A stretch of 64,000 bases of DNA from an uncultured Candidatus Saccharibacteria bacterium (GCA_964555185.1 CAZKRD010000001.1:303272-367271); one strand, 5' to 3'; shown: positions 27,231 through 41,539, counted from the stretch's first letter. A program made the numbers and translations. Notes: generated from the letters alone by a model not told the origin.

Positions 27231-28541
27231 ATGGACTTGTCGATTTTCGCGCCCTTTGTCCAAATTTTTGGTATCCTAAAAATTGTTTTTGGCAATCTAT
27301 GGCACTTTATTGTTCCGCCTTTTTTGTTTCTGATTGCTTTTATCTCTTGGGTTTATTACCGCCAGGGTCAGTACTTAAAGGGCATTGAGTATGCTCTTTT
27401 GGCGGTCAATGTTCCGGCTGAAAATCTGCGCACTCCTTTTGCCGCAGAGCAGATTATGGCTGGCTTGCATGGTATCTTAACACCACGCGATTTGATTGAA
27501 AGGTATTGGCTGGGTGAAATCCAGGAATGGTTTTCTTTTGAGATTATTGGTATTGAGGGTCATGTTCATTTTATTATCAGGACGCCGGCTAAGTTCATAG
27601 ATTTGGTGGAAGCTCATGTTTATGCCCAATACCCGGAAGCAGAAATAATAGAAGTGGAGGATTATACCAAAAATGTGCCAGACGATATTACCAGTCCAGA
27701 ATCCAAGTGGGACATTTGGGGCACGGAGATGGCTCTTGCCAAGGAAGACGCCTATCCGATTAGAACCTATGTGGATTTTGAGTTCGCAACCCAGGCCGCG
27801 CCCGATGAAGCAAAGATAGATTCTTTGGCTGGTGTTATTGAGCTAATGAGCCATTTAGGGAGAGGTGAGCAGATGTGGATTCAGATACCATCCCAGCCTG
27901 CTTTCGACACCTGGAAGGAGGATGGTGAAAAACTGGTTAAAAAATTGATCGGCGTCAAAGAGCCCAAAAAGAAAAGTATTTTAGGGGATGTGGCGCGGGA
28001 ATGGGGCGAGATTGCGGTCAAGACAGTAACTCAAGCCCCTTTTGAACCTCCGACTTTTCAAGAACCGGGGGAGAAAGAGGAAGATCGTGGCTTGCCAAGT
28101 CTAATGCAGTTTCTTTCCCCTGGTCAACAGGAAACGATTAAAGCGATAGAGCGGAATATTAGCAAGGTCGCTTATCGCAATAAAGTAAGGATGATTTATT
28201 TAATCCATAAGGATGTTTACAATAAAGAGTTGATGAAATCACGGGCCGCCGCTTTTATCGGCGCTTTCACCCATTTTGCCACCACTCATCTTAATACTTT
28301 TGTGCCGAAACGGAAGACCAGCGCCCACTATTGGTTTCCTGCTACCAGGCTTAATTTTCGCAAACGTCAGATTTTGCGGGAATACAAAGAGAGGAAACTT
28401 TCTGACGGCCAGAGTTTTTTCTTGAACACGGAAGAGTTGGCCACTATTTTTCATTTCCCAACGGCCACGGTCAAGGCGCCAATGGTCGAGAAAATAGAAG
28501 TGAAGAAAGCAATGCCGCCTGCTGGCCTGCCGGTTACCTGA
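27231..28541 (+). CDS. Membrane-anchored hypothetical protein (2 N-terminal TM helices)
   Basis: 436 aa; the N-terminus IFGILKIVFGNLWHFIVPPFLFLIAFISWVYY is predicted as two TM helices. An extended -10 (TGgTATAAT, 27182-27190) lies upstream. It precedes the VirD4-like ATPase gene. Confidence 0.5.
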   Translation: MDLSIFAPFVQIFGILKIVFGNLWHFIVPPFLFLIAFISWVYYRQGQYLKGIEYALLAVNVPAENLRTPFAAEQIMAGLHGILTPRDLIERYWLGEIQEWFSFEIIGIEGHVHFIIRTPAKFIDLVEAHVYAQYPEAEIIEVEDYTKNVPDDITSPESKWDIWGTEMALAKEDAYPIRTYVDFEFATQAAPDEAKIDSLAGVIELMSHLGRGEQMWIQIPSQPAFDTWKEDGEKLVKKLIGVKEPKKKSILGDVAREWGEIAVKTVTQAPFEPPTFQEPGEKEEDRGLPSLMQFLSPGQQETIKAIERNISKVAYRNKVRMIYLIHKDVYNKELMKSRAAAFIGAFTHFATTHLNTFVPKRKTSAHYWFPATRLNFRKRQILREYKERKLSDGQSFFLNTEELATIFHFPTATVKAPMVEKIEVKKAMPPAGLPVT

Positions 28542-28689: not shown

Positions 28690-30396
28690 ATGTCAGAATA
28701 CATTGTTCCCTTTGCGATGACTAATTTCCGCAATTCAGAACGGAAGTTTGGGATTAAAGGAGATGATCGCCGCAGACACATTTATATTATCGGTAAGACG
28801 GGCATGGGCAAAACCACCCTGCTTGAAAATATGGCAATTACCGATATCCAGGCAGGCAAGGGTTTGGCGATTGTTGATCCGCATGGGCAGTTCGCGGATA
28901 AGATGCTGGATTTCGTGCCCCCTAATCGTATCAATGACGTGGTTTATTTTAATCCCGCGGATTATGATTACCCAATCGCTTTTAATATCTTGGAGCAGGT
29001 GGAGCCGCAGTATAAGCATTTGATTGCCGATGGTTTAGTTGGTGTTTTCAAAAAAATCTGGGCTGATTCTTGGGGGCCCCGTTTGGAGTATATTTTGCGC
29101 AATGCTATTCTAGCCCTCTTGGATTATCCTTCTTCTACTCTTTTAGGCGTGACCCGGATGCTTGTTGATAAAAATTACCGCAAAAAGGTAGTGCGTAAAA
29201 TTCAGGATCCCGTGGTGCGCTCTTTCTGGATTGATGAATATGCTCATTACAGTGAGCGTTTCAGGAATGAAGCAATCTCGCCAATCCAGAATAAAGTAGG
29301 CCAGTTTTTGTCTTCAGCTTTAATTCGTAATATCATTGGTCAGCCTAAATCAGTGATCAATATCCGCGATATTATGGATTCAGGTAAGATTTTATTAATG
29401 AATATCGCGAAAGGCAAAGTAGGTGAAGAAAACAGCGCTCTCTTAGGCGCGATGATGATTACCAAGATTCAGTTGGCGGCAATGAGCCGCGCTGATATCC
29501 CCGAAGACGAGAGGCGCGATTTTTATCTCTATATTGATGAGTTTCAGAATTTTTCCACAGAGTCGTTTGCCAATATTTTATCAGAAGCGCGTAAGTACAG
29601 ATTGGATTTGATTCTGGCTCATCAATACATCGCCCAGATGGAGGAGCCGGTGCGTGATGCCGTATTCGGTAACGTGGGGACGATTGTTTGTTTCCGCATC
29701 GGTGCGTGGGATGCTGAATTTTTAGAGCCGGAATTCCAGCCGGTGTTTACCCAGCTGGATCTCGTTAATTTGACCAAATACGAGATTTATCTCAAATTGA
29801 TGATTGACGGCGTGGCTTCGGATGCTTTTTCCGCCAAGACCTTGCCGCCGATTGAAGACGAGGCGTCCTACTATCCAGAGAGTCGGGATAAAATCATTAA
29901 GATTTCGCGGGAAAGGTACGCCAATGAGCGCTCCGAAGTGGAAGATAAGATTAACCGTTGGAGCGGAGCGGATCAGGAACCCGCGCGCGACAATGTGCCA
30001 AGACAGCAAGAAGAGCACTGGAATAGGGATAGGGATAGACGGGATTATGGTCGTCGCAATTTTAATAACCAGAGAGAACGGGATAATAGATATCAGCAAA
30101 GCAAGCAGGACCGTCGTCCTTGGGACAATTTTGGCCGGCGCTTTCCGCGTAAACAGGAAGTAGAGCCGATTGCTACCCCTGTGCCTAAAAGTATTTCTTT
30201 GAGCGACGCGATCAAGCAGGGAACCCAAACTTTTCGCAAACCAAAAAGAAGACCGGAGCCAGACAAGAGAGAGACAAGAGAGAGTCGCGATTTCACCTCG
30301 CCAAAGATACAGAGGAATCCTAAGGTTCAGGAAAACAGAGACAAAACCCGTCGTCCTGCCCAAGGCGTGCAAGAGGACCAAGTCATTAGACTTTGA
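28690..30396 (+). CDS. TraD/VirD4/TrwB-like P-loop ATPase (DUF87/AAA-like coupling-protein family) with a disordered R/D/E-rich tail
   Basis: Walker A HIYIIGKTGMGKTT and Walker B FYLYIDEFQNF. The arrangement is similar to type IV coupling proteins and HerA. The last ~170 aa are low complexity (RDRDRRDYGRRNFNNQRERDNRYQQSKQDRRPW...). Confidence 0.6.
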   Translation: MSEYIVPFAMTNFRNSERKFGIKGDDRRRHIYIIGKTGMGKTTLLENMAITDIQAGKGLAIVDPHGQFADKMLDFVPPNRINDVVYFNPADYDYPIAFNILEQVEPQYKHLIADGLVGVFKKIWADSWGPRLEYILRNAILALLDYPSSTLLGVTRMLVDKNYRKKVVRKIQDPVVRSFWIDEYAHYSERFRNEAISPIQNKVGQFLSSALIRNIIGQPKSVINIRDIMDSGKILLMNIAKGKVGEENSALLGAMMITKIQLAAMSRADIPEDERRDFYLYIDEFQNFSTESFANILSEARKYRLDLILAHQYIAQMEEPVRDAVFGNVGTIVCFRIGAWDAEFLEPEFQPVFTQLDLVNLTKYEIYLKLMIDGVASDAFSAKTLPPIEDEASYYPESRDKIIKISRERYANERSEVEDKINRWSGADQEPARDNVPRQQEEHWNRDRDRRDYGRRNFNNQRERDNRYQQSKQDRRPWDNFGRRFPRKQEVEPIATPVPKSISLSDAIKQGTQTFRKPKRRPEPDKRETRESRDFTSPKIQRNPKVQENRDKTRRPAQGVQEDQVIRL

Positions 30397-31004: not shown

Positions 31005-31171
31005 CTCCAATCACCAAGATACAATAACCAAGTTACAAACAATAACCAATTATCCAATCACCAATCTGCCTTGCCCCGTCTCGCCGAGGCAGACGACAGA
31101 CAGGTAACCAAACCGTTTGATTATTGGTTATTGAAATTTGTTTGTTTCTTGTTTCTTGGTTATTGGTTATT
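31005..31171 (+). repeat. ~140-bp heptamer-periodic palindromic element (word caccaataacca / tggttattggtg), copy 1, with a 40-bp GC-rich insertion
   Basis: About 85% identical to 34191-34322. The internal hairpin is caatcaccaat...aaccaaaccgtttgattattggttattg. Confidence 0.7.
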
Positions 31172-31564
31172 ATGAACACTTTATCTCAATCTAATTTCGT
31201 AAAAATTTCACTTGATCTTGTTAAGGAAATTTTATACTTCCCCCTCTGGTGGTACTCGCGCGGAGCGGGGAAATATTGGCAATGGGCATGGAAGCGGATC
31301 AAGCAGACAGAGAAGGTTCTCGCTTTCCAGATTATGTTGAAGAATATCTACCGGCCCTTATACGGCGATTACAGTTTTATTGGTATTTTGATTGGACCGG
31401 TGATCAGAAGTTCCTGGCTGATTTTGATTAGTATCGGGATGCTTTTGACCTTGTTGTTTTTCGCGGGTCTTTTTTTGGTTTATCTTCTCCTGCCTCCTTT
31501 TTGTCTTTATATAATTATTTTCCAATATGGCTTTTTCCAAAACGCGAATCCTACACTGCCCTAA
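31172..31564 (+). CDS. Small membrane protein (hypothetical)
   Basis: About 130 aa with 3 predicted TM helices. The track start at 31124 is TTG, so the ATG at 31172 is used. It overlaps the start of the ClpB/C-like gene, which suggests translational coupling. Confidence 0.4.
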   Translation: MNTLSQSNFVKISLDLVKEILYFPLWWYSRGAGKYWQWAWKRIKQTEKVLAFQIMLKNIYRPLYGDYSFIGILIGPVIRSSWLILISIGMLLTLLFFAGLFLVYLLLPPFCLYIIIFQYGFFQNANPTLP

Positions 31565-34190
31565 CTGCAAAGGCGCGGGTTGTTCTCAATGCGGGAACAG
31601 AGGTGTTTTTTTGCAGACAGAAAAAGGGATTTTTTATTGGGGGCCATCCCGGGAGGATCGTTATCTTCGCTGCCAGAGATTCAGTTTGATTCTAAACAAT
31701 TTTTTGGATTATTTGGTTTTGTTTTTCGGCATTGCCGCTTTGATTTACCAGGCCGTAATTTTTATTTGGGAGCGAGGGTTTTTTGCCTCTCCGCTTTTGT
31801 GGGCGGGAATTTTAGCCTTGGCTTTTGCCGGCTTTCGCTTTTCCCGCAGGAAGGAAAAGCAAAAAAGACTGAAATTTTCCAAAGAGCCTTCTCCAGAAAT
31901 TAAAGCTAAGAGTTTGAGCGGTTTGCTCCAATCCAAAGACCTTCTGGATGTCCAGCCTTTTTTAAGCCGGCCGGTCAAATTAACCCTGATCAAAGCCTGG
32001 GCCCAGGCGGGCGGCACCTTGGAGCCCTTTTTTATTTTTAAAAATCTTCTCTCCTGCCGAAAAATAGAAGAACTTATTTTGAGATTAGGTTTGGACTTTG
32101 GAGACTTAAATAAAAAATGGCGCAAGCAGACTCGCCATTTTAAAAGAGAGGCTGGAGTTGGATTTAATCTTGTTTTTAAAAAGCTTGTTTTGGAGAGCTT
32201 GGCCTTTGCCCTATTTCTAGAAAGGGAAACAATTTCGCCTTTGGAGTTTTTTCTAGGCGCGGTCAAAGCAGAGCCGAAACTGCTGGCTCTGTTTCAGGAT
32301 CAAGGTTTAGACCTAAAAGCCCTGTATTATACGGCTCAATGGATTTACAACAAAAAGGAGTTTGTCGGGAGATGGAAGAAATTCTCCGCTCGCGCCAGGT
32401 TCAAGCCAAAAGGAGTAATGAATCGGGCCTATACTTCGCGGGCAACACCGATTTTGGATAGAGTCAGTGATGACTTGACTGTCCAGGCCAGAGCGGGAGC
32501 TTTGCCTTTGCTTGTTAATCGTAAAAAAGAGATTGACGAGATTTTAGTGAATTTAAAGCAGGCAGACGGCAACGCAATTTTAGTGGGCAAACCGGGAGTG
32601 GGCAAATCCGCGATCGTTTATGGCCTTGCTAATCTGATGGCGGCAGAAGAAGTCCCCGAGATTTTGCAGGATAAACGCTTGGTCAGTTTAGATGCAGCTT
32701 CTCTGTTTTCTGTGTCAGGAGAGGGTGAGAGGCCGATTGTTATTTTAAAAAAGATTATTTCTGAAATAATCAAATCCGGCAATATTATTCTTTTTATTGA
32801 TAACATTTCTAACTTGATTGGACTGGGCCGGGGCGGCAGCGGCTTGGACGCGGCAGAGATTGTGATGCGCGTTTTGCCCAAACCCACGGTTCATGCGATT
32901 GGGATATCAACGGAAGAAGATTACCATCAGGTTTTGGAAGCAAGAGGGGATTTTACAAGAAGGTTCCAGATCATCGAAGTAGCAGAACCGGACTCTAATT
33001 TAACATTGGAAATTTTGGAAAGCAGTTCCAGTTTAATTGAATACCAGGAGAACATTTTCTTTACTTATCCTGCCCTAGATCAGGCAATTGTTTTATCCCA
33101 ACAATATATTTATGACAGTTACTTGCCAGCTAAAGCGCTGAACCTCTTGGCTGATGCCGCTTCTTTTGCTCATCGCAAAGGGAAATTAAGGGTTGTCCGC
33201 GGTGAAGATGTAGTTCGCTTAGTAGAGGAAAGGGTTAAGGTGCCGATCTCTAAAGCTACAAAAGAAGAAGGAAAAAAATTACTGCACCTAGAAGAGGAGA
33301 TGCACAAAAGAATTGTTGACCAAGAGGAAGGAGTTGGAATGGTAGCGGAAGGATTGCGCAGGGCAAGGGCGGGAATGCGGGAAAAGAAAAGGCCGATTGT
33401 TTCCCTGCTTTTTGCCGGGTCCACCGGGGTGGGTAAGACCGAGACAGCGAAAACTTTAGCCGAGATCTATTTTGGTTCGGAAGAGCGGATGATCCGCTTG
33501 GATATGAGCGAATATCAAGCCCCAGATTCGATTAATAAGCTGATTGGCGTCTCGGCAGGCCATGCCAGCGAGGGACGAGGTTATCTTACCGCGGCGGTGC
33601 GGAAGAACCCTTTTTCTTTAATTCTTTTGGATGAGCTCGAAAAAGCCCATCCTGATATTTTGAATGCTTTTCTACAGGTGGTTGAAGACGGCAGACTAAC
33701 TGATGGCCGCGGCCGGACTATTGATTTTACGAACACGATAATTATTGCTACTACTAACGCGGGAACGGATGAGATTACGCAAGCGATTAAAGGCGGCGTG
33801 AAATTAGCGCAAATCAAAAGACAGTTTATTGAGAATGTCTTGACCAAGCATTACCGTTTGGAATTTCTCAATCGTTTTGACGGTATTGTTCTCTTTAGAC
33901 CTTTAGCTCCAGAACACGTAGTTGCGATCGCTGGTCTTATGCTTGAGAAAGTGCGCAAACGACTGCTTGCCAAAAATATGCATTTTTCCTATACAAAAGA
34001 GGCGGCAGAAGACTTGGCAAAAAAGGGCTTTGATCCTGTTTTTGGCGCCAGACCCTTGCGCCGTTTGATTCAGAATACCGTGGACAATGCGCTAGCCAAA
34101 CACATTCTTTCCGGAGAACTCGGCCCTCGCGATGTCGCGGTTTTAGAAGCAGGAGGCAGAATCACAATCAAACAGGCAGAAGAAATATAG
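31527..34190 (+). CDS. ClpB/ClpC-family AAA+ chaperone with unusual N-terminal zinc ribbon and 2 TM helices
   Basis: 887 aa. N-terminal CPNCKGAGCSQCGNRG, then two hydrophobic helices. D1 P-loop LVGKPGVGKSAIVYGLA; D2 P-loop AGSTGVGKTETAKTLA with Walker B LILLDELEKAHPD and sensor GARPLRRLIQ. The D1 Walker B reads ILFIDNISNLIG, i.e. DN where DE is expected. Confidence 0.8.
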   Translation: MAFSKTRILHCPNCKGAGCSQCGNRGVFLQTEKGIFYWGPSREDRYLRCQRFSLILNNFLDYLVLFFGIAALIYQAVIFIWERGFFASPLLWAGILALAFAGFRFSRRKEKQKRLKFSKEPSPEIKAKSLSGLLQSKDLLDVQPFLSRPVKLTLIKAWAQAGGTLEPFFIFKNLLSCRKIEELILRLGLDFGDLNKKWRKQTRHFKREAGVGFNLVFKKLVLESLAFALFLERETISPLEFFLGAVKAEPKLLALFQDQGLDLKALYYTAQWIYNKKEFVGRWKKFSARARFKPKGVMNRAYTSRATPILDRVSDDLTVQARAGALPLLVNRKKEIDEILVNLKQADGNAILVGKPGVGKSAIVYGLANLMAAEEVPEILQDKRLVSLDAASLFSVSGEGERPIVILKKIISEIIKSGNIILFIDNISNLIGLGRGGSGLDAAEIVMRVLPKPTVHAIGISTEEDYHQVLEARGDFTRRFQIIEVAEPDSNLTLEILESSSSLIEYQENIFFTYPALDQAIVLSQQYIYDSYLPAKALNLLADAASFAHRKGKLRVVRGEDVVRLVEERVKVPISKATKEEGKKLLHLEEEMHKRIVDQEEGVGMVAEGLRRARAGMREKKRPIVSLLFAGSTGVGKTETAKTLAEIYFGSEERMIRLDMSEYQAPDSINKLIGVSAGHASEGRGYLTAAVRKNPFSLILLDELEKAHPDILNAFLQVVEDGRLTDGRGRTIDFTNTIIIATTNAGTDEITQAIKGGVKLAQIKRQFIENVLTKHYRLEFLNRFDGIVLFRPLAPEHVVAIAGLMLEKVRKRLLAKNMHFSYTKEAAEDLAKKGFDPVFGARPLRRLIQNTVDNALAKHILSGELGPRDVAVLEAGGRITIKQAEEI

Positions 34191-34322: not shown

Positions 34323-34463
34323 TTCTTTGCTATTTGACCTGATTTTTTTTACTTTAAACTTTGACATAAATGAAGATTTAGAGTTATAATATTCTCTTGC
34401 TCTTTTTTTAAAAAACAAAGATCACAACCACAACAACCCTTAGTTAGATAGAGGAGGTCTTAA

Positions 34464-34934
34464 ATGGCACGCAGTAAAAGTGGACAGAAGAGACGCCGGA
34501 CCCAGATCCGGCAGAGGCAGAGACGGAGAGAGAAGAGGAGAAAGGCAAGGTTAAAGGAGCAGATTGGCAAGTCTCCGGAACCTCAAGAAAAAGTCTATTT
34601 CTCTGATCTTTCGGCATCAACCCATCCAGACAATAGATGTCCTCATTGCGACCAAAGAACGGGGCATAGAAGCGAAACAGTGCATACTCAGGATGCGGGA
34701 GATCAAAGACTGTTCCGTTGTCAGAATTGTCAGAAATTGTTTAAACCATACATAGAGGAGGTTTATTACAAAAATCTCCTAGAAGCAGGTTTTACAGATT
34801 GTTGCCCGCACTGCTATAGCAGATCTGGCAATCAAACAGTGTCTATCGATACCAAGGATCAAGGCAGACAGAGACTGTTCCGTTGCGGCAATAGTGAATG
34901 TGGCAGACTGTTCAAACCTCGTCCAAGCTATTAA
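34464..34934 (+). CDS. Small basic protein with two tandem IS1-InsA-like zinc-ribbon motifs
   Basis: 156 aa. The N-terminal arginine-rich segment is RRRTQIRQRQRRREKRRKAR. Two repeats of CPHC...QRLFRC.NC.KLFKP, similar to the C-P-x-C...Q-R-Y-x-C-x-x-C-x-K zinc finger of IS1 InsA. The RBS is GAGGAGG. Confidence 0.5.
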   Translation: MARSKSGQKRRRTQIRQRQRRREKRRKARLKEQIGKSPEPQEKVYFSDLSASTHPDNRCPHCDQRTGHRSETVHTQDAGDQRLFRCQNCQKLFKPYIEEVYYKNLLEAGFTDCCPHCYSRSGNQTVSIDTKDQGRQRLFRCGNSECGRLFKPRPSY

Positions 34935-39679: not shown

Positions 39680-41539
39680 ATGATCCTGTATGAAAATACA
39701 ATAGAGCATTTTAACGAAGATGTAATGCAAAATTGCGTTGCGGATCGTGCGGCTGAAAAATACCGAGCATATTATAATAGGGATCCTGGTAATTCCGAGT
39801 ATCGGTCTTGGAGAAACTCACTTGCCATTCTAAATAATAGTTTTATCTATGCCGGATTAAAAAATAACCATATAATTATAGAATATGAACTTCCTTATTC
39901 ATCACGCAGAATTGATGTTTTGCTTTTTGGAAATGATCCTGATGGAGAAGAAAATATTGTCATGATGGAACTCAAGCAATGGTCGAATGAAAACGTTGAA
40001 GACTCTGCATCAGAAGGTAATGTAATTGTTGATTACGGGAAATTCAAAAAAGAACAAGTGCACCCTGCGTTGCAAGTGCAGGGATATCATTTTGGTTTAA
40101 AAGATTTTCTTGGAATTTTTGAACAAAAAAACGCTCCAGAGCTAAGTTCATGTGCATATGCACATAATTATTCAAAAGAAGATAGCACTGTTCTTTTTTT
40201 ACCTAAATTTTCTAGTACAATCAAGACATTTCCTTTATTTGCGAAGGAAGATGCTGTTGAATTGGGGCGGTATCTTAAAGATCGACTTCAAGGTGGCGGT
40301 GGGAAAATAATCTTTGAGCGTTTTGCAAGAAGCGCAATTAAGCCATCTAAAAGACTTCTTGATCATACGTCAGAGATGATAAATGAACAGCAAATTTTTA
40401 ATTTAATTGATGAGCAAATTACTGCCTATAATGCGATAATGCACAAAGCCAAACAGCTTGCGAAAACAAAGCAGAAAGCTGTAGTCATAGTAAAAGGTGG
40501 TCCAGGTACGGGAAAATCTGTGATAGCATTAGAAGTTATGGGAGAACTTTTACGACAAGGGAAAAGGGTTATGCATGCCACAGGATCATCCGCGTTTACA
40601 AATACATTAAGGAAGATAGTGGGTATGCGAGCAAGAAATCTCTTTAAATTTTTTAATAGCTTTATTGCAACGGAGCCAGATTCTTTTGATGTGCTTATTT
40701 GTGATGAAGCCCATCGTATAAGAGAATCGAGCATGAGTAGATATACTCCAAGGGCTCAAAGAACAAATTTGCCTCAGATAGATGAATTGCTAAGAGTAGC
40801 AAAATTAAATATTTTCTTTTTAGATGAGCATCAAATCGTACGGCCAAGTGAAATTGGCGGCATTGCGATGCTTAAGGAGGCCGTTAAACGTTTTGGTATT
40901 AATGATAAAAATGTAGCTGAATTTGAATTAAAAACACAATTTCGTTGTTCTGGATCAGATGCTTATTTACAATGGCTTGATCATGTTTTAAGGATTCGTG
41001 ATACGGAAATGAGAGAGTTTGATGCAAAAATGGAATTTCGTATTTTCGATAACCCTTCAGATATGATGTCTGAAATTCGAAAGAGGAACAAGGAAACATC
41101 AAACTCAGCTCGCATAGCAGCGGGGTTTTGTTGGCCTTGGAGCAAACCAAACCCGGAAGGTTCATTAGTAAAAGATGTAAAAATTGGAAATTTTGCAATG
41201 CCATGGGAGAAGAAAGATCAATTTTGGAAATGGGCAACAGATGATTCAGGCATGGAACAGGTTGGTACTATATATACGGCTCAGGGATTTGAATTTGATT
41301 ATATTGCTGTAATTTTCGGTAACGATTTAGTTTTTGATCCGGTTGAAAATAAATGGCAGGCAGTGCCGGAGAATTCTCATGATACACAAGTAAAACGCAA
41401 TAACCCAAATCTCACGAATCATTTAAAAAACGTTTATCGCGTGCTTCTTTCTCGGGCCCATAAGGGCGTGTATGTTTATTTTATGGATAAAGATACAGAA
41501 AAATATTTTAAGAGTTATTTACCGGAAATAAAATCATGA
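39680..41539 (+). CDS. DUF2075-type nuclease-helicase (N-terminal PD-(D/E)xK nuclease plus P-loop SF1-like ATPase)
   Basis: 619 aa. N-terminal PD-(D/E)xK-like motif IEYELPYSSRRIDVLLFG...IVMMELKQWS; Walker A KGGPGTGKSVIALEV; DEAH-like ICDEAHRI. The start is 3 nt after the MazG stop, so the three genes look like one operon. Confidence 0.65.
   Translation: MILYENTIEHFNEDVMQNCVADRAAEKYRAYYNRDPGNSEYRSWRNSLAILNNSFIYAGLKNNHIIIEYELPYSSRRIDVLLFGNDPDGEENIVMMELKQWSNENVEDSASEGNVIVDYGKFKKEQVHPALQVQGYHFGLKDFLGIFEQKNAPELSSCAYAHNYSKEDSTVLFLPKFSSTIKTFPLFAKEDAVELGRYLKDRLQGGGGKIIFERFARSAIKPSKRLLDHTSEMINEQQIFNLIDEQITAYNAIMHKAKQLAKTKQKAVVIVKGGPGTGKSVIALEVMGELLRQGKRVMHATGSSAFTNTLRKIVGMRARNLFKFFNSFIATEPDSFDVLICDEAHRIRESSMSRYTPRAQRTNLPQIDELLRVAKLNIFFLDEHQIVRPSEIGGIAMLKEAVKRFGINDKNVAEFELKTQFRCSGSDAYLQWLDHVLRIRDTEMREFDAKMEFRIFDNPSDMMSEIRKRNKETSNSARIAAGFCWPWSKPNPEGSLVKDVKIGNFAMPWEKKDQFWKWATDDSGMEQVGTIYTAQGFEFDYIAVIFGNDLVFDPVENKWQAVPENSHDTQVKRNNPNLTNHLKNVYRVLLSRAHKGVYVYFMDKDTEKYFKSYLPEIKS

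Follow-up and report, generated by a model that had tools for sequence, protein, structure and literature searches.

The mechanism of Hsp100 proteins is built on pore-loop tyrosines in rings that hydrolyse ATP, and the described bacterial members of the group (ClpA, ClpB, ClpC, ClpE, ClpG, ClpK, ClpL and ClpV) are, to our knowledge, soluble. Other AAA+ proteins work at membranes. FtsH has an N-terminal anchor of two transmembrane (TM) helices, with both termini inside (N-in/C-in), a cytoplasmic AAA+ hexamer held toward the membrane, and membrane proteins as clients, while Pex1/Pex6 has a structural first ring (D1) and a motor in its second ring (D2), is recruited by a small membrane protein and has membrane-associated clients. 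The torsins are Hsp100-related, associate with the membrane through an N-terminal hydrophobic region, have no aromatic pore loops and have the membrane-spanning cofactors LAP1 and LULL1 (PMC5425593). Here we describe a bacterial gene that resembles each of these in part. It lies in a 64,000-nucleotide stretch of DNA, hereafter the window, from an uncultured Candidatus Saccharibacteria bacterium (GCA_964555185.1, CAZKRD010000001.1:303272-367271), and it encodes a double-ring Clp/Hsp100 ATPase with a predicted N-terminal membrane anchor, a D1 ring that appears degenerate, an intact D2 ring and, immediately upstream, the gene of a small putative membrane partner. The ATPase and its parts are as follows.

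31527..34190, plus strand: predicted membrane-anchored class-I Clp/Hsp100 paralogue of 887 amino acids (aa); ATG start, Pfam, NCBIfam and PDB matches, AlphaFold2 model
31557..31604, plus strand: DnaJ-type zinc knuckle CPNCKGAG-CSQCGNRG, aa 11-26, with four conserved Cys
31689..31757, plus strand: predicted TM helix 1, aa ~55-77 (Kyte-Doolittle 1.92; AlphaFold2 helix 43-82)
31791..31850, plus strand: predicted TM helix 2, aa ~89-108 (Kyte-Doolittle 1.88; AlphaFold2 helix 89-111)
31896..32396, plus strand: diverged Clp_N-like helical N-domain, aa ~124-290, from a profile-level match
32442..33251, plus strand: D1, degenerate AAA+ ring, from motif alignments
32586-32609, plus strand: D1 Walker A, GKPGVGKS
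32787-32804, plus strand: D1 Walker B, ILFIDN
33252..34187, plus strand: D2, intact AAA+ motor with the D2-small domain, from motif alignments
33417-33440, plus strand: D2 Walker A, GSTGVGKT
33540-33581, plus strand: D2 pore loop, LIGVSAGHASEGRG, with His in place of the expected Tyr
33618-33635, plus strand: D2 Walker B, LILLDE

The open reading frame (ORF) was found exactly where a preliminary description of this DNA had placed it, and by its domains it is a class-I Clp/Hsp100 protein, with the tandem AAA+ modules accompanied by AAA_lid_9 and ClpB_D2-small that mark the superfamily. Pfam places AAA_2 at aa 622-785 (1.5e-50), ClpB_D2-small at aa 793-868 (3.9e-23) and AAA_lid_9 at aa 492-566 (2e-06), and the domain order (Clp_N-like, D1 with AAA_lid_9, D2 as AAA_2, D2-small) is that of ClpB, ClpC and ClpA. 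When PDB was searched with phmmer, the best sequence match was E. coli ClpB (3.8e-127), whose alignment is split into two stretches over D1 and D2, and ClpA gave a single contiguous alignment. An AlphaFold2 model based on 68 family sequences has a predicted local distance difference test score of 84 and a predicted template-modelling score of 0.77; its D1 and D2 match ClpC and ClpB subunits in Foldseek with a target-normalised template-modelling score of ~0.8, the best matches being ClpC structures, and they superpose on subunits of substrate-bound ClpB and ClpC hexamers. Searched with PADLOC, the ATPase gave only generic D2-domain matches (PDC-M37B and DolB) and the small partner gave none; a reading of the pair as an anti-phage defence system was rejected because the ATPase matches are to generic AAA+ only.

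The highest-ranked NCBIfam models are those for ClpB, ClpA, ClpK, ClpV and ClpG, and all score far under their equivalog cutoffs (511 bits against 1232 for the ClpB model TIGR03346, 449 against 993 for ClpA). ClpB is distinguished by a long coiled-coil M-domain in the small subdomain of D1, and ClpC by a short M-domain and UVR motif for control by MecA-type adaptors; the ATPase of the window (the query) has neither. Only 98 residues separate its D1 lid motif from the D2 Walker A, compared with 158 in ClpC and 222 in the canonical Hsp100 encoded beside it in some Patescibacteria (see below), no coiled coil is seen in the AlphaFold2 model, and Pfam gives no match to PF02151 (UVR) or PF23569, both of which are listed for nearly all canonical ClpC hits. 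The [LIV]-G-[FL] loop with which the D2 of ClpC, ClpA and ClpE docks ClpP is also missing: the alignment shows no [LIV]-G-F loop in the query or in any family member displayed, the segment from D2 sensor 1 to the Arg finger being ~16 residues shorter than in ClpC and without an xGF tripeptide, which bears out the earlier expectation that an IGF/LGF loop would be lacking. The ATPase is thus like ClpA, and unlike ClpB and ClpC, in having no M-domain, and like ClpB, and unlike ClpA and ClpC, in having no IGL/IGF loop, and its output would therefore be neither degradation nor Hsp70-coupled disaggregation. Public records name members of the family 'ATP-dependent Clp protease ATP-binding subunit', 'AAA family ATPase' or 'hypothetical', and these names, like the Foldseek ranking, speak for a plain ClpC serving as the ATPase partner of ClpP. 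We regard this as very improbable, given the distance from the equivalog cutoffs, the deletion of the docking loop in all members examined, the absence of M-domain and UVR motif, a D1 that appears dead, and a canonical Hsp100 with an IGF loop that adjoins the gene in nine genomes.

The preliminary description had drawn attention to a D1 Walker B in which asparagine replaces the catalytic glutamate, and this replacement is real. The query segment ILFIDNISNL aligns residue for residue with ILFIDELHTM of E. coli ClpB, canonical ClpC reads ILFIDE at this position in 39 of 39 sequences, and D1 contains no alternative DE motif. The query D1 keeps Walker A, the sensor-1 Thr and the Arg-Arg fingers, leaving the Walker-B Glu as the one catalytic loss, and for this reason the ring most likely binds ATP but is deficient in hydrolysis. 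To this extent the comparison that had been made with the E-to-Q substrate-trap mutation holds for the query; the trap itself does not, because the pore-loop Tyr with which a ring grips its substrate is lost. The equivalent of the D1 pore loop is SVSGEGERP in the query, and the Tyr of KYRGEFE is missing in every family member displayed.

Across the family D1 decays further. We tabulated the catalytic columns in two samples, one of the 80 proteins returned by a full-length search and one of 63 sequences (62 species-level GTDB loci and the query). Glutamate occupies the Walker-B column in one of 80 and none of 63 (Asn in 46 and Asp in 25 of the former, Asn in 46 and Asp in 13 of the latter), and the preceding Asp is kept in 35/80 and 24/63. 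In Walker A the Ser/Thr is kept by 52/80 and 29/63, and the Lys by 78/80; the two Arg fingers survive in only 11 and 9 of 80, and in 6 and 2 of 63. The clade of the query has the least decayed D1, with Walker A, sensor 1 and both Arg fingers retained. Judged from these columns, D1 looks like a structural or pseudo-ATPase ring and not a trap. Both rings of ClpB combine a Walker-B D-E with a pore-loop Tyr; in the query D1 has D-N without the Tyr, and His stands in the D2 pore loop.

D2 presents a different picture. The catalytic motif reported for it is kept, the Walker B reading LILLDELEKA in context, and nothing is lost from sensor 1, from the Arg finger (NRFD) or from sensor 2 (GARPLRR). All 63 sequences of the GTDB sample have the Lys and Thr of Walker A, the Asp and Glu of Walker B, the Arg finger and sensor 2, and these motifs are the same in kind as those of ClpB, ClpC and ClpA. 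The pore loop, on the other hand, is shortened and has no aromatic residue in most members, reading AGH in the query. Any aromatic is found there in 25/80 and 7/63, and the form G[YF] in 15 of the 80 proteins from the full-length search. A hydrophobic residue occupies x of GG-x-LT in 83-97% of the members that lack GYVG. The idea that a relocated pore-loop Tyr at this position compensates for the loss was rejected, as E. coli ClpB itself has GGYLTE.

These features bear on the earlier suggestion of a membrane-tethered unfoldase or disaggregase, which in its fullest form would have D1 as an ATP-locked gripping trap and D2 threading polypeptide processively. The parts that stand are the membrane tether and the intact D2 ATPase, and such a machine would also be consistent with a query D1 that has lost its catalytic Glu only, with the superposition on substrate-bound ClpB and ClpC subunits, and with the minority of G[YF] pore loops. 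Yet no member has the D1 pore-loop Tyr that a trap-like grip would use, the GYVG aromatic of D2 is lost from 55/80 and 56/63 (His in the query), there is no M-domain for disaggregation coupled to DnaK (Hsp70), and a canonical Hsp100 is present alongside. Processive threading is doubtful because the pore loops are non-canonical in both rings, and we consider a processive unfoldase of this kind unlikely.

What sets the family apart is the module that precedes the rings. At the N-terminus of the ATPase is a zinc motif, CPNCKGAGCSQCGNRG, whose cysteines C11, C14, C19 and C22 are each at least 90% conserved in the family alignment, where the consensus reads CPxCxGxG...CxxCxGxG. This had been called a zinc ribbon; the four-Cys motif is certainly there, and is better described as a knuckle of the DnaJ/Anti-TRAP type, having the paired CxxCxGxG of one zinc centre that characterises the Cys-rich zinc finger of DnaJ. 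DnaJ_CXXCXGXG (PF00684) matches 10 of 14 members and Anti-TRAP 5 of 14, all weakly (best PF00684 E=0.0012), while the query knuckle itself matches neither and Pfam reported no ClpX zinc-finger match for the query or for family members. The knuckle occurs in 37 of 63 species-level members of the GTDB sample (~60%) and is thus apparently dispensable in ~40% of the family. ClpE and ClpX also carry a four-Cys zinc module N-terminal to the ATPase; here the module reads as a DnaJ/Anti-TRAP-type pair and is followed by two TM helices, and ClpE and ClpX dock ClpP, for which the ATPase described here has no loop. Similarity to ClpE (29hb) is confined to D1 and D2.

The two TM helices that had been proposed as a membrane tether are supported by hydropathy and by helices of matching position in the AlphaFold2 model, and a basic stretch, RFSRRKEKQKRLK, directly follows the second. 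Nearly every full-length family member has a hydrophobic helix matching TM1, and no canonical ClpC sequence has one. Averaged over the family, the segment preceding TM1 carries a net charge of +1.7, the loop -0.4 and the segment following TM2 +2.0. Two helices of TM length with a positive-inside bias are what is expected of an integral-membrane hairpin, and because the charges fit the positive-inside rule we infer, from hydropathy, charge bias and a monomer AlphaFold2 model, an N-in/C-in topology, which would place the knuckle and the two rings on the cytoplasmic side. The helices show only moderate conservation (majority-residue fraction 0.38), and the outside loop varies from 10 to 49 aa across the family. 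Beyond the hairpin, the Clp-N-like region is supported at profile level, the family profile aligning with the ClpC N-domain in hhalign at 98.3% and E=1.9e-14 (residues ~144-270), so that the Clp_N double repeat of ClpC has a diverged counterpart here; Clp_N in Pfam matches 8 of 14 members, although the query alone has no Pfam match in its N-region.

An N-terminal extension of this kind might result from a mis-called start, with the true one downstream of the TM region, or belong to a decaying pseudogene copy. The closest relative, P0001 (93% identical, locus L087), is indeed annotated from a start inside the gene, which leaves out the knuckle, and the silence of Pfam over the query N-region would fit an artefact as well. 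The DNA of that relative nevertheless keeps the ATG, and all four substitutions in its knuckle codons relative to the query are synonymous. The ratio of non-synonymous to synonymous substitution (dN/dS), computed for this gene pair by the Nei-Gojobori method, comes to 0.094 over the whole length and is low in every region: residues 1-54 have 0.10, the hairpin 0.14, the N-domain 0.145, D1 0.11 and D2 0.06. The knuckle and hairpin are kept in orthologues down to ~35% identity, and the module is conserved in hundreds of clusters. By these comparisons the called ATG is the right start and the N-terminal module is under purifying selection; an annotation artefact is effectively refuted already, and we give it almost no credence.

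The preliminary description had also mentioned a small polytopic membrane protein gene overlapping the start of the ATPase gene, and this gene proves to be real and conserved.

31172..31564, plus strand: putative small membrane partner, 130 aa from Met17; homologues, alignments, AlphaFold2 model

Called mechanically, the ORF runs from a TTG at 31124 to 31564, but translation most likely starts at Met17 (31172), and a 130-aa protein already on record (P0121) is 100% identical to the product. Its 3' end overlaps the first 38 nt of the ATPase gene, and a sigma-70 scan upstream of it found no convincing promoter. The protein is predicted to be all-helical (AlphaFold2, predicted local distance difference test score 80); it contains the aromatic motif FPLWWY and, toward the C-terminus, ~43 residues of hydrophobic sequence. 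Homologues span 27-57% identity, and the invariant positions of their alignments (Y22, F23, P24, W26, W27, Y28, G31, N58, R61, P62 and G65) give the signature YFPxWWY...G and N..RP..G. The protein has no family in Pfam, NCBIfam or PADLOC, and a fold search against PDB returned nothing significant (best E=5.3).

The pairing of the two genes is close to obligate. At six distant ATPase loci a homologous gene of 117-127 aa lies immediately upstream on the same strand, and a reverse search of GTDB species representatives with a profile of the small partner found 80 loci, of which 73 have at least ~1 kb of downstream sequence. The ATPase gene is directly adjacent in 68 of these 73, within ~0.4-1.1 kb in two and lacking in three, and the intergenic gaps cluster between -14 and +9 nt. 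On this arrangement the small partner and the ATPase are read as a two-gene operon, in that order, and the partner is not strictly tied to ATPase adjacency. In two of the three loci without an ATPase the next ORF is of ~220 aa, at L078:4510-5426, where it is ruvA, and at L072:108-1021; a replacement of the Clp-like gene by such an ORF is seen in a few lineages, among them a Jacksonbacteria metagenome-assembled genome (MAG). An apparent in-frame fusion of partner and ATPase at L049 was rejected when translation showed a stop codon between the genes.

Several lines of evidence indicate that the family extends across the Patescibacteria and is not a one-off. The full-length search returned about 80 proteins of ~820-950 aa (most of them 860-950) with 35-43% identity, which cover the query largely or entirely (typically ~99%) and which, where named, are from Patescibacteria; canonical ClpC ranks after them and covers 35-70% of the query. 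When 1.84 billion cluster representatives were searched exhaustively with a profile built from the first 300 residues, 187 clusters scored at E<=1e-30, and relaxing the threshold to E<=1e-10 gave 803. A word-indexed search with the N-terminal 310 aa gave no matches, although the 93%-identical protein is in the same database; since the full-length and exhaustive profile searches recover the module, this null result reflects a failure of sensitivity and not absence. The taxonomic restriction is that of the specifically named records, many loci being titled 'uncultured Gammaproteobacteria', a placeholder for co-assembly bins; among the loci found with the partner profile, the closest relative with a specific name is a Candidatus Doudnabacteria MAG.

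Two kinds of variant were seen among the relatives. P0084 and P0120, of ~860 aa and 35-36% identity, likewise have hydrophobic helices at the N-terminus and a D1 that is degenerate, with E-D in Walker B; they have no zinc knuckle and read GARELRR at sensor 2, which suggests further membrane-anchored Hsp100 branches. A sub-family of ~600 aa (P0205, P0226, P0228, P0236, P0238 and P0271, and also L086:401-2221) has the same knuckle, TM hairpin, N-domain and degenerate D1 and ends without any D2; from their motifs these D1-only variants are probably non-catalytic, membrane-anchored pseudo-AAA+ proteins. At L086 the ORF upstream of the D1-only gene is not the small partner, and a gene for a WecA-like enzyme of glycosyltransferase family 4 (GT4) lies directly downstream.

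In nine of 56 loci a canonical, soluble Hsp100 of ~880 aa is encoded upstream and transcribed divergently from the ATPase gene.

L023:1717-4350, minus strand: head-to-head canonical Hsp100 with D-E, RR and GYVG motifs
L035:1613-4249, minus strand: head-to-head canonical Hsp100 with the same motifs
L036, L044, L055, L069, L070, L071 and L084: further loci with a head-to-head canonical Hsp100

These neighbours have D-E in D1, KFRGEFE, RR, GYVG, a long M-domain and an IGF-type loop. Since a canonical Hsp100 coexists with it, the membrane-anchored ATPase is, to judge from these motifs, an additional, specialised paralogue in at least those nine genomes. The neighbours themselves show an unusual mixture of ClpB and ClpC hallmarks, having the ClpB-length spacing of 222 residues together with an IGF-type ('SIGF') ClpP loop.

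Downstream of the ATPase, one association recurs. A GT4 enzyme is encoded directly after it in 21 of 50 species-level loci (about 40%) and in three of six loci collected earlier, the best match being WecA at 92-127 bits, under the equivalog cutoff. SpoVK, an AAA+ protein that promotes the envelope glycosyltransferase MurG (PMC11513918), offers a precedent for supposing that the ATPase might be a dedicated chaperone, regulator or scaffold of a WecA/TagO-like transferase of N-acetylglucosamine-1-phosphate onto polyprenyl phosphate. The WecA-like gene beside a D1-only variant agrees with this, and the D1-only variants in general suggest a scaffold role that needs no ATPase. However, the linkage is absent from the window and from more than half of the loci, and the other neighbours of the family (tRNA synthetases, TGT, NusG and DnaX) point to generic housekeeping synteny, so that we think a role dedicated to this enzyme improbable. 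The linkage weakly suggests the initiation of envelope glycans as a candidate client process.

In proposing how the ATPase works, we favour, with moderate confidence, a D2-driven remodeller or extractor of membrane-proximal clients that operates without ClpP or DnaK, both client and mechanism being inferred. The ATPase would form a hexamer like its relatives, in which nucleotide binding by D1 would help assembly and D1 would persist as a nucleotide-stabilised structural ring, leaving D2 as the sole ring to hydrolyse ATP. Twelve TM helices would then hold the N-terminal, substrate-entry face toward the membrane, the small partner being packed against the hairpin in the role of cofactor or adaptor, and the Clp_N-like domain and DnaJ-type knuckle would bind client or adaptor. 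Clients embedded in or close to the membrane would be remodelled or extracted, with no hand-over to ClpP and no coupling to DnaK. Because most members are without canonical pore-loop aromatics in both rings, this action is more likely to be short-range, in the manner of torsins or Pex1/Pex6, than processive threading in the style of ClpB.

Several observations weigh against this model. About a fifth to a third of one sample keep G[YF] or another aromatic in the D2 pore loop, so threading may be ancestral and may still operate in some lineages, and the His of the query D2 could retain a partial grip. The D1-only variants imply that part of the function may need no ATPase, and the three of 73 loci at which the partner has no adjacent Clp-like gene loosen the tie between the two proteins. 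With respect to clients, no WecA-like GT4 gene lies downstream in the window, where a zinc-finger ORF and mnmA are found instead, and the linkage seen elsewhere could be inherited synteny and not function.

The predicted geometry invites a more ambitious interpretation, in which the twelve TM helices and the partner would make a pore aligned with the AAA+ channel, through which polypeptides, or polymers of another kind, are pulled across or out of the membrane as in PTEX or Bcs1. A TM hairpin on each protomer would indeed set the entry face of the ring at the membrane, the membrane partner is near-obligate, the length of the outside loop varies from locus to locus, and the family is, by its specifically named records, confined to MAGs of Patescibacteria type. 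Patescibacteria are generally regarded as host-dependent episymbionts. But the pore loops are weak or absent, the TM helices are conserved only moderately, and a conduit is deduced from geometry alone, with no sign of a hydrophilic pore; we therefore hold it to be quite improbable. A related, speculative possibility, to which we give a low probability, is a membrane machine specific to Patescibacteria, in which a hexameric motor derived from Hsp100 has its 12 TM helices and partner as a portal or extraction site and acts on envelope or host-derived macromolecules without aromatic pore loops. If true, such a portal machine would be a bacterial counterpart of Torsin/LAP1 or Pex1/Pex6-Pex15.

Set against the systems with which we began, the ATPase differs from ClpB, ClpC and ClpA in the added TM hairpin and zinc knuckle, in a D1 without catalytic Glu and pore-loop Tyr, in the replacement of the D2 pore-loop Tyr, in its dedicated small membrane partner and in its coexistence with a canonical Hsp100. 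Torsins are single-ring, lumenal and without an Arg finger of their own, whereas this protein is double-ring, predicted to be cytoplasmic and keeps its D2 Arg finger; the resemblance is put forward purely as an analogy of function. Pex1/Pex6, and also NSF and p97, are double-ring AAA+ proteins with one inactive ring, but Pex1/Pex6 belongs to the classical AAA clade, is anchored non-covalently through Pex15/Pex26 and has aromatic D2 pore loops. FtsH has the two-TM, N-in/C-in anchor that is predicted here, but is a single-ring member of the classical AAA clade with a fused Zn-metalloprotease and an aromatic pore loop; the ATPase has no protease domain.

The cassette is set in a housekeeping stretch, all the genes of the window being on one strand. 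Before it are genes for SecA, SecD, SecF, a sigma-like protein, a DUF8128 protein (27231-28541), a TrwB/VirD4-like coupling-protein ATPase (28690-30396) and rubrerythrin, and after it come the zinc-finger ORF, MnmA, AlaRS and RadC. The TrwB/VirD4-like copy of the window has a long, low-complexity basic tail; a pair of DUF8128 and TrwB-like genes is also found near the cassette in L004 and L087, and in L006 a TrwB-like gene alone lies directly upstream. The zinc-finger ORF (34464..34934) encodes a protein of 156 aa that is strongly basic at its N-terminus and contains two zinc ribbons of the CPxCG type, and is preceded by a sigma-70-like promoter with a 12/12 match (34361-34390). The whole segment of ~0.66 kb to which they belong is absent from L087, in which only 131 nt separate the Clp-like gene from mnmA, and from this comparison the segment has the look of a recent insertion. 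Farther on, beyond RadC and a MazG-like ORF, is a gene for a 619-aa Schlafen group-3-like DNA/RNA helicase (39680-41539; PF09848, 1.5e-85), which by its similarity may be a defence-related gene within a housekeeping region.

The sequences of this family are already public. In the literature that we searched we found no description of a membrane-anchored bacterial Hsp100, of this Patescibacteria family or of its partner, and in a 2021 review of bacterial Hsp100 disaggregases the words 'membrane', 'transmembrane' and 'zinc' do not occur. Recognition of the family corrects an error that recurs systematically in the annotation of hundreds of Patescibacteria genomes, where its members are entered as 'ClpC, ATP-binding subunit of Clp protease', and also gives context to an orphan family of small proteins. 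A whole bacterial radiation is predicted to keep a membrane-inserted Hsp100 with one dead ring, under strong purifying selection, beside a normal Hsp100. This amounts to a natural experiment on the role of a D1 ring without hydrolysis or grip, and on the useful work that an Hsp100 D2 could do without GYVG, and it bears on the homeostasis of membrane proteins and envelope in the genome-reduced Patescibacteria, the ultra-small bacteria of the candidate phyla radiation.

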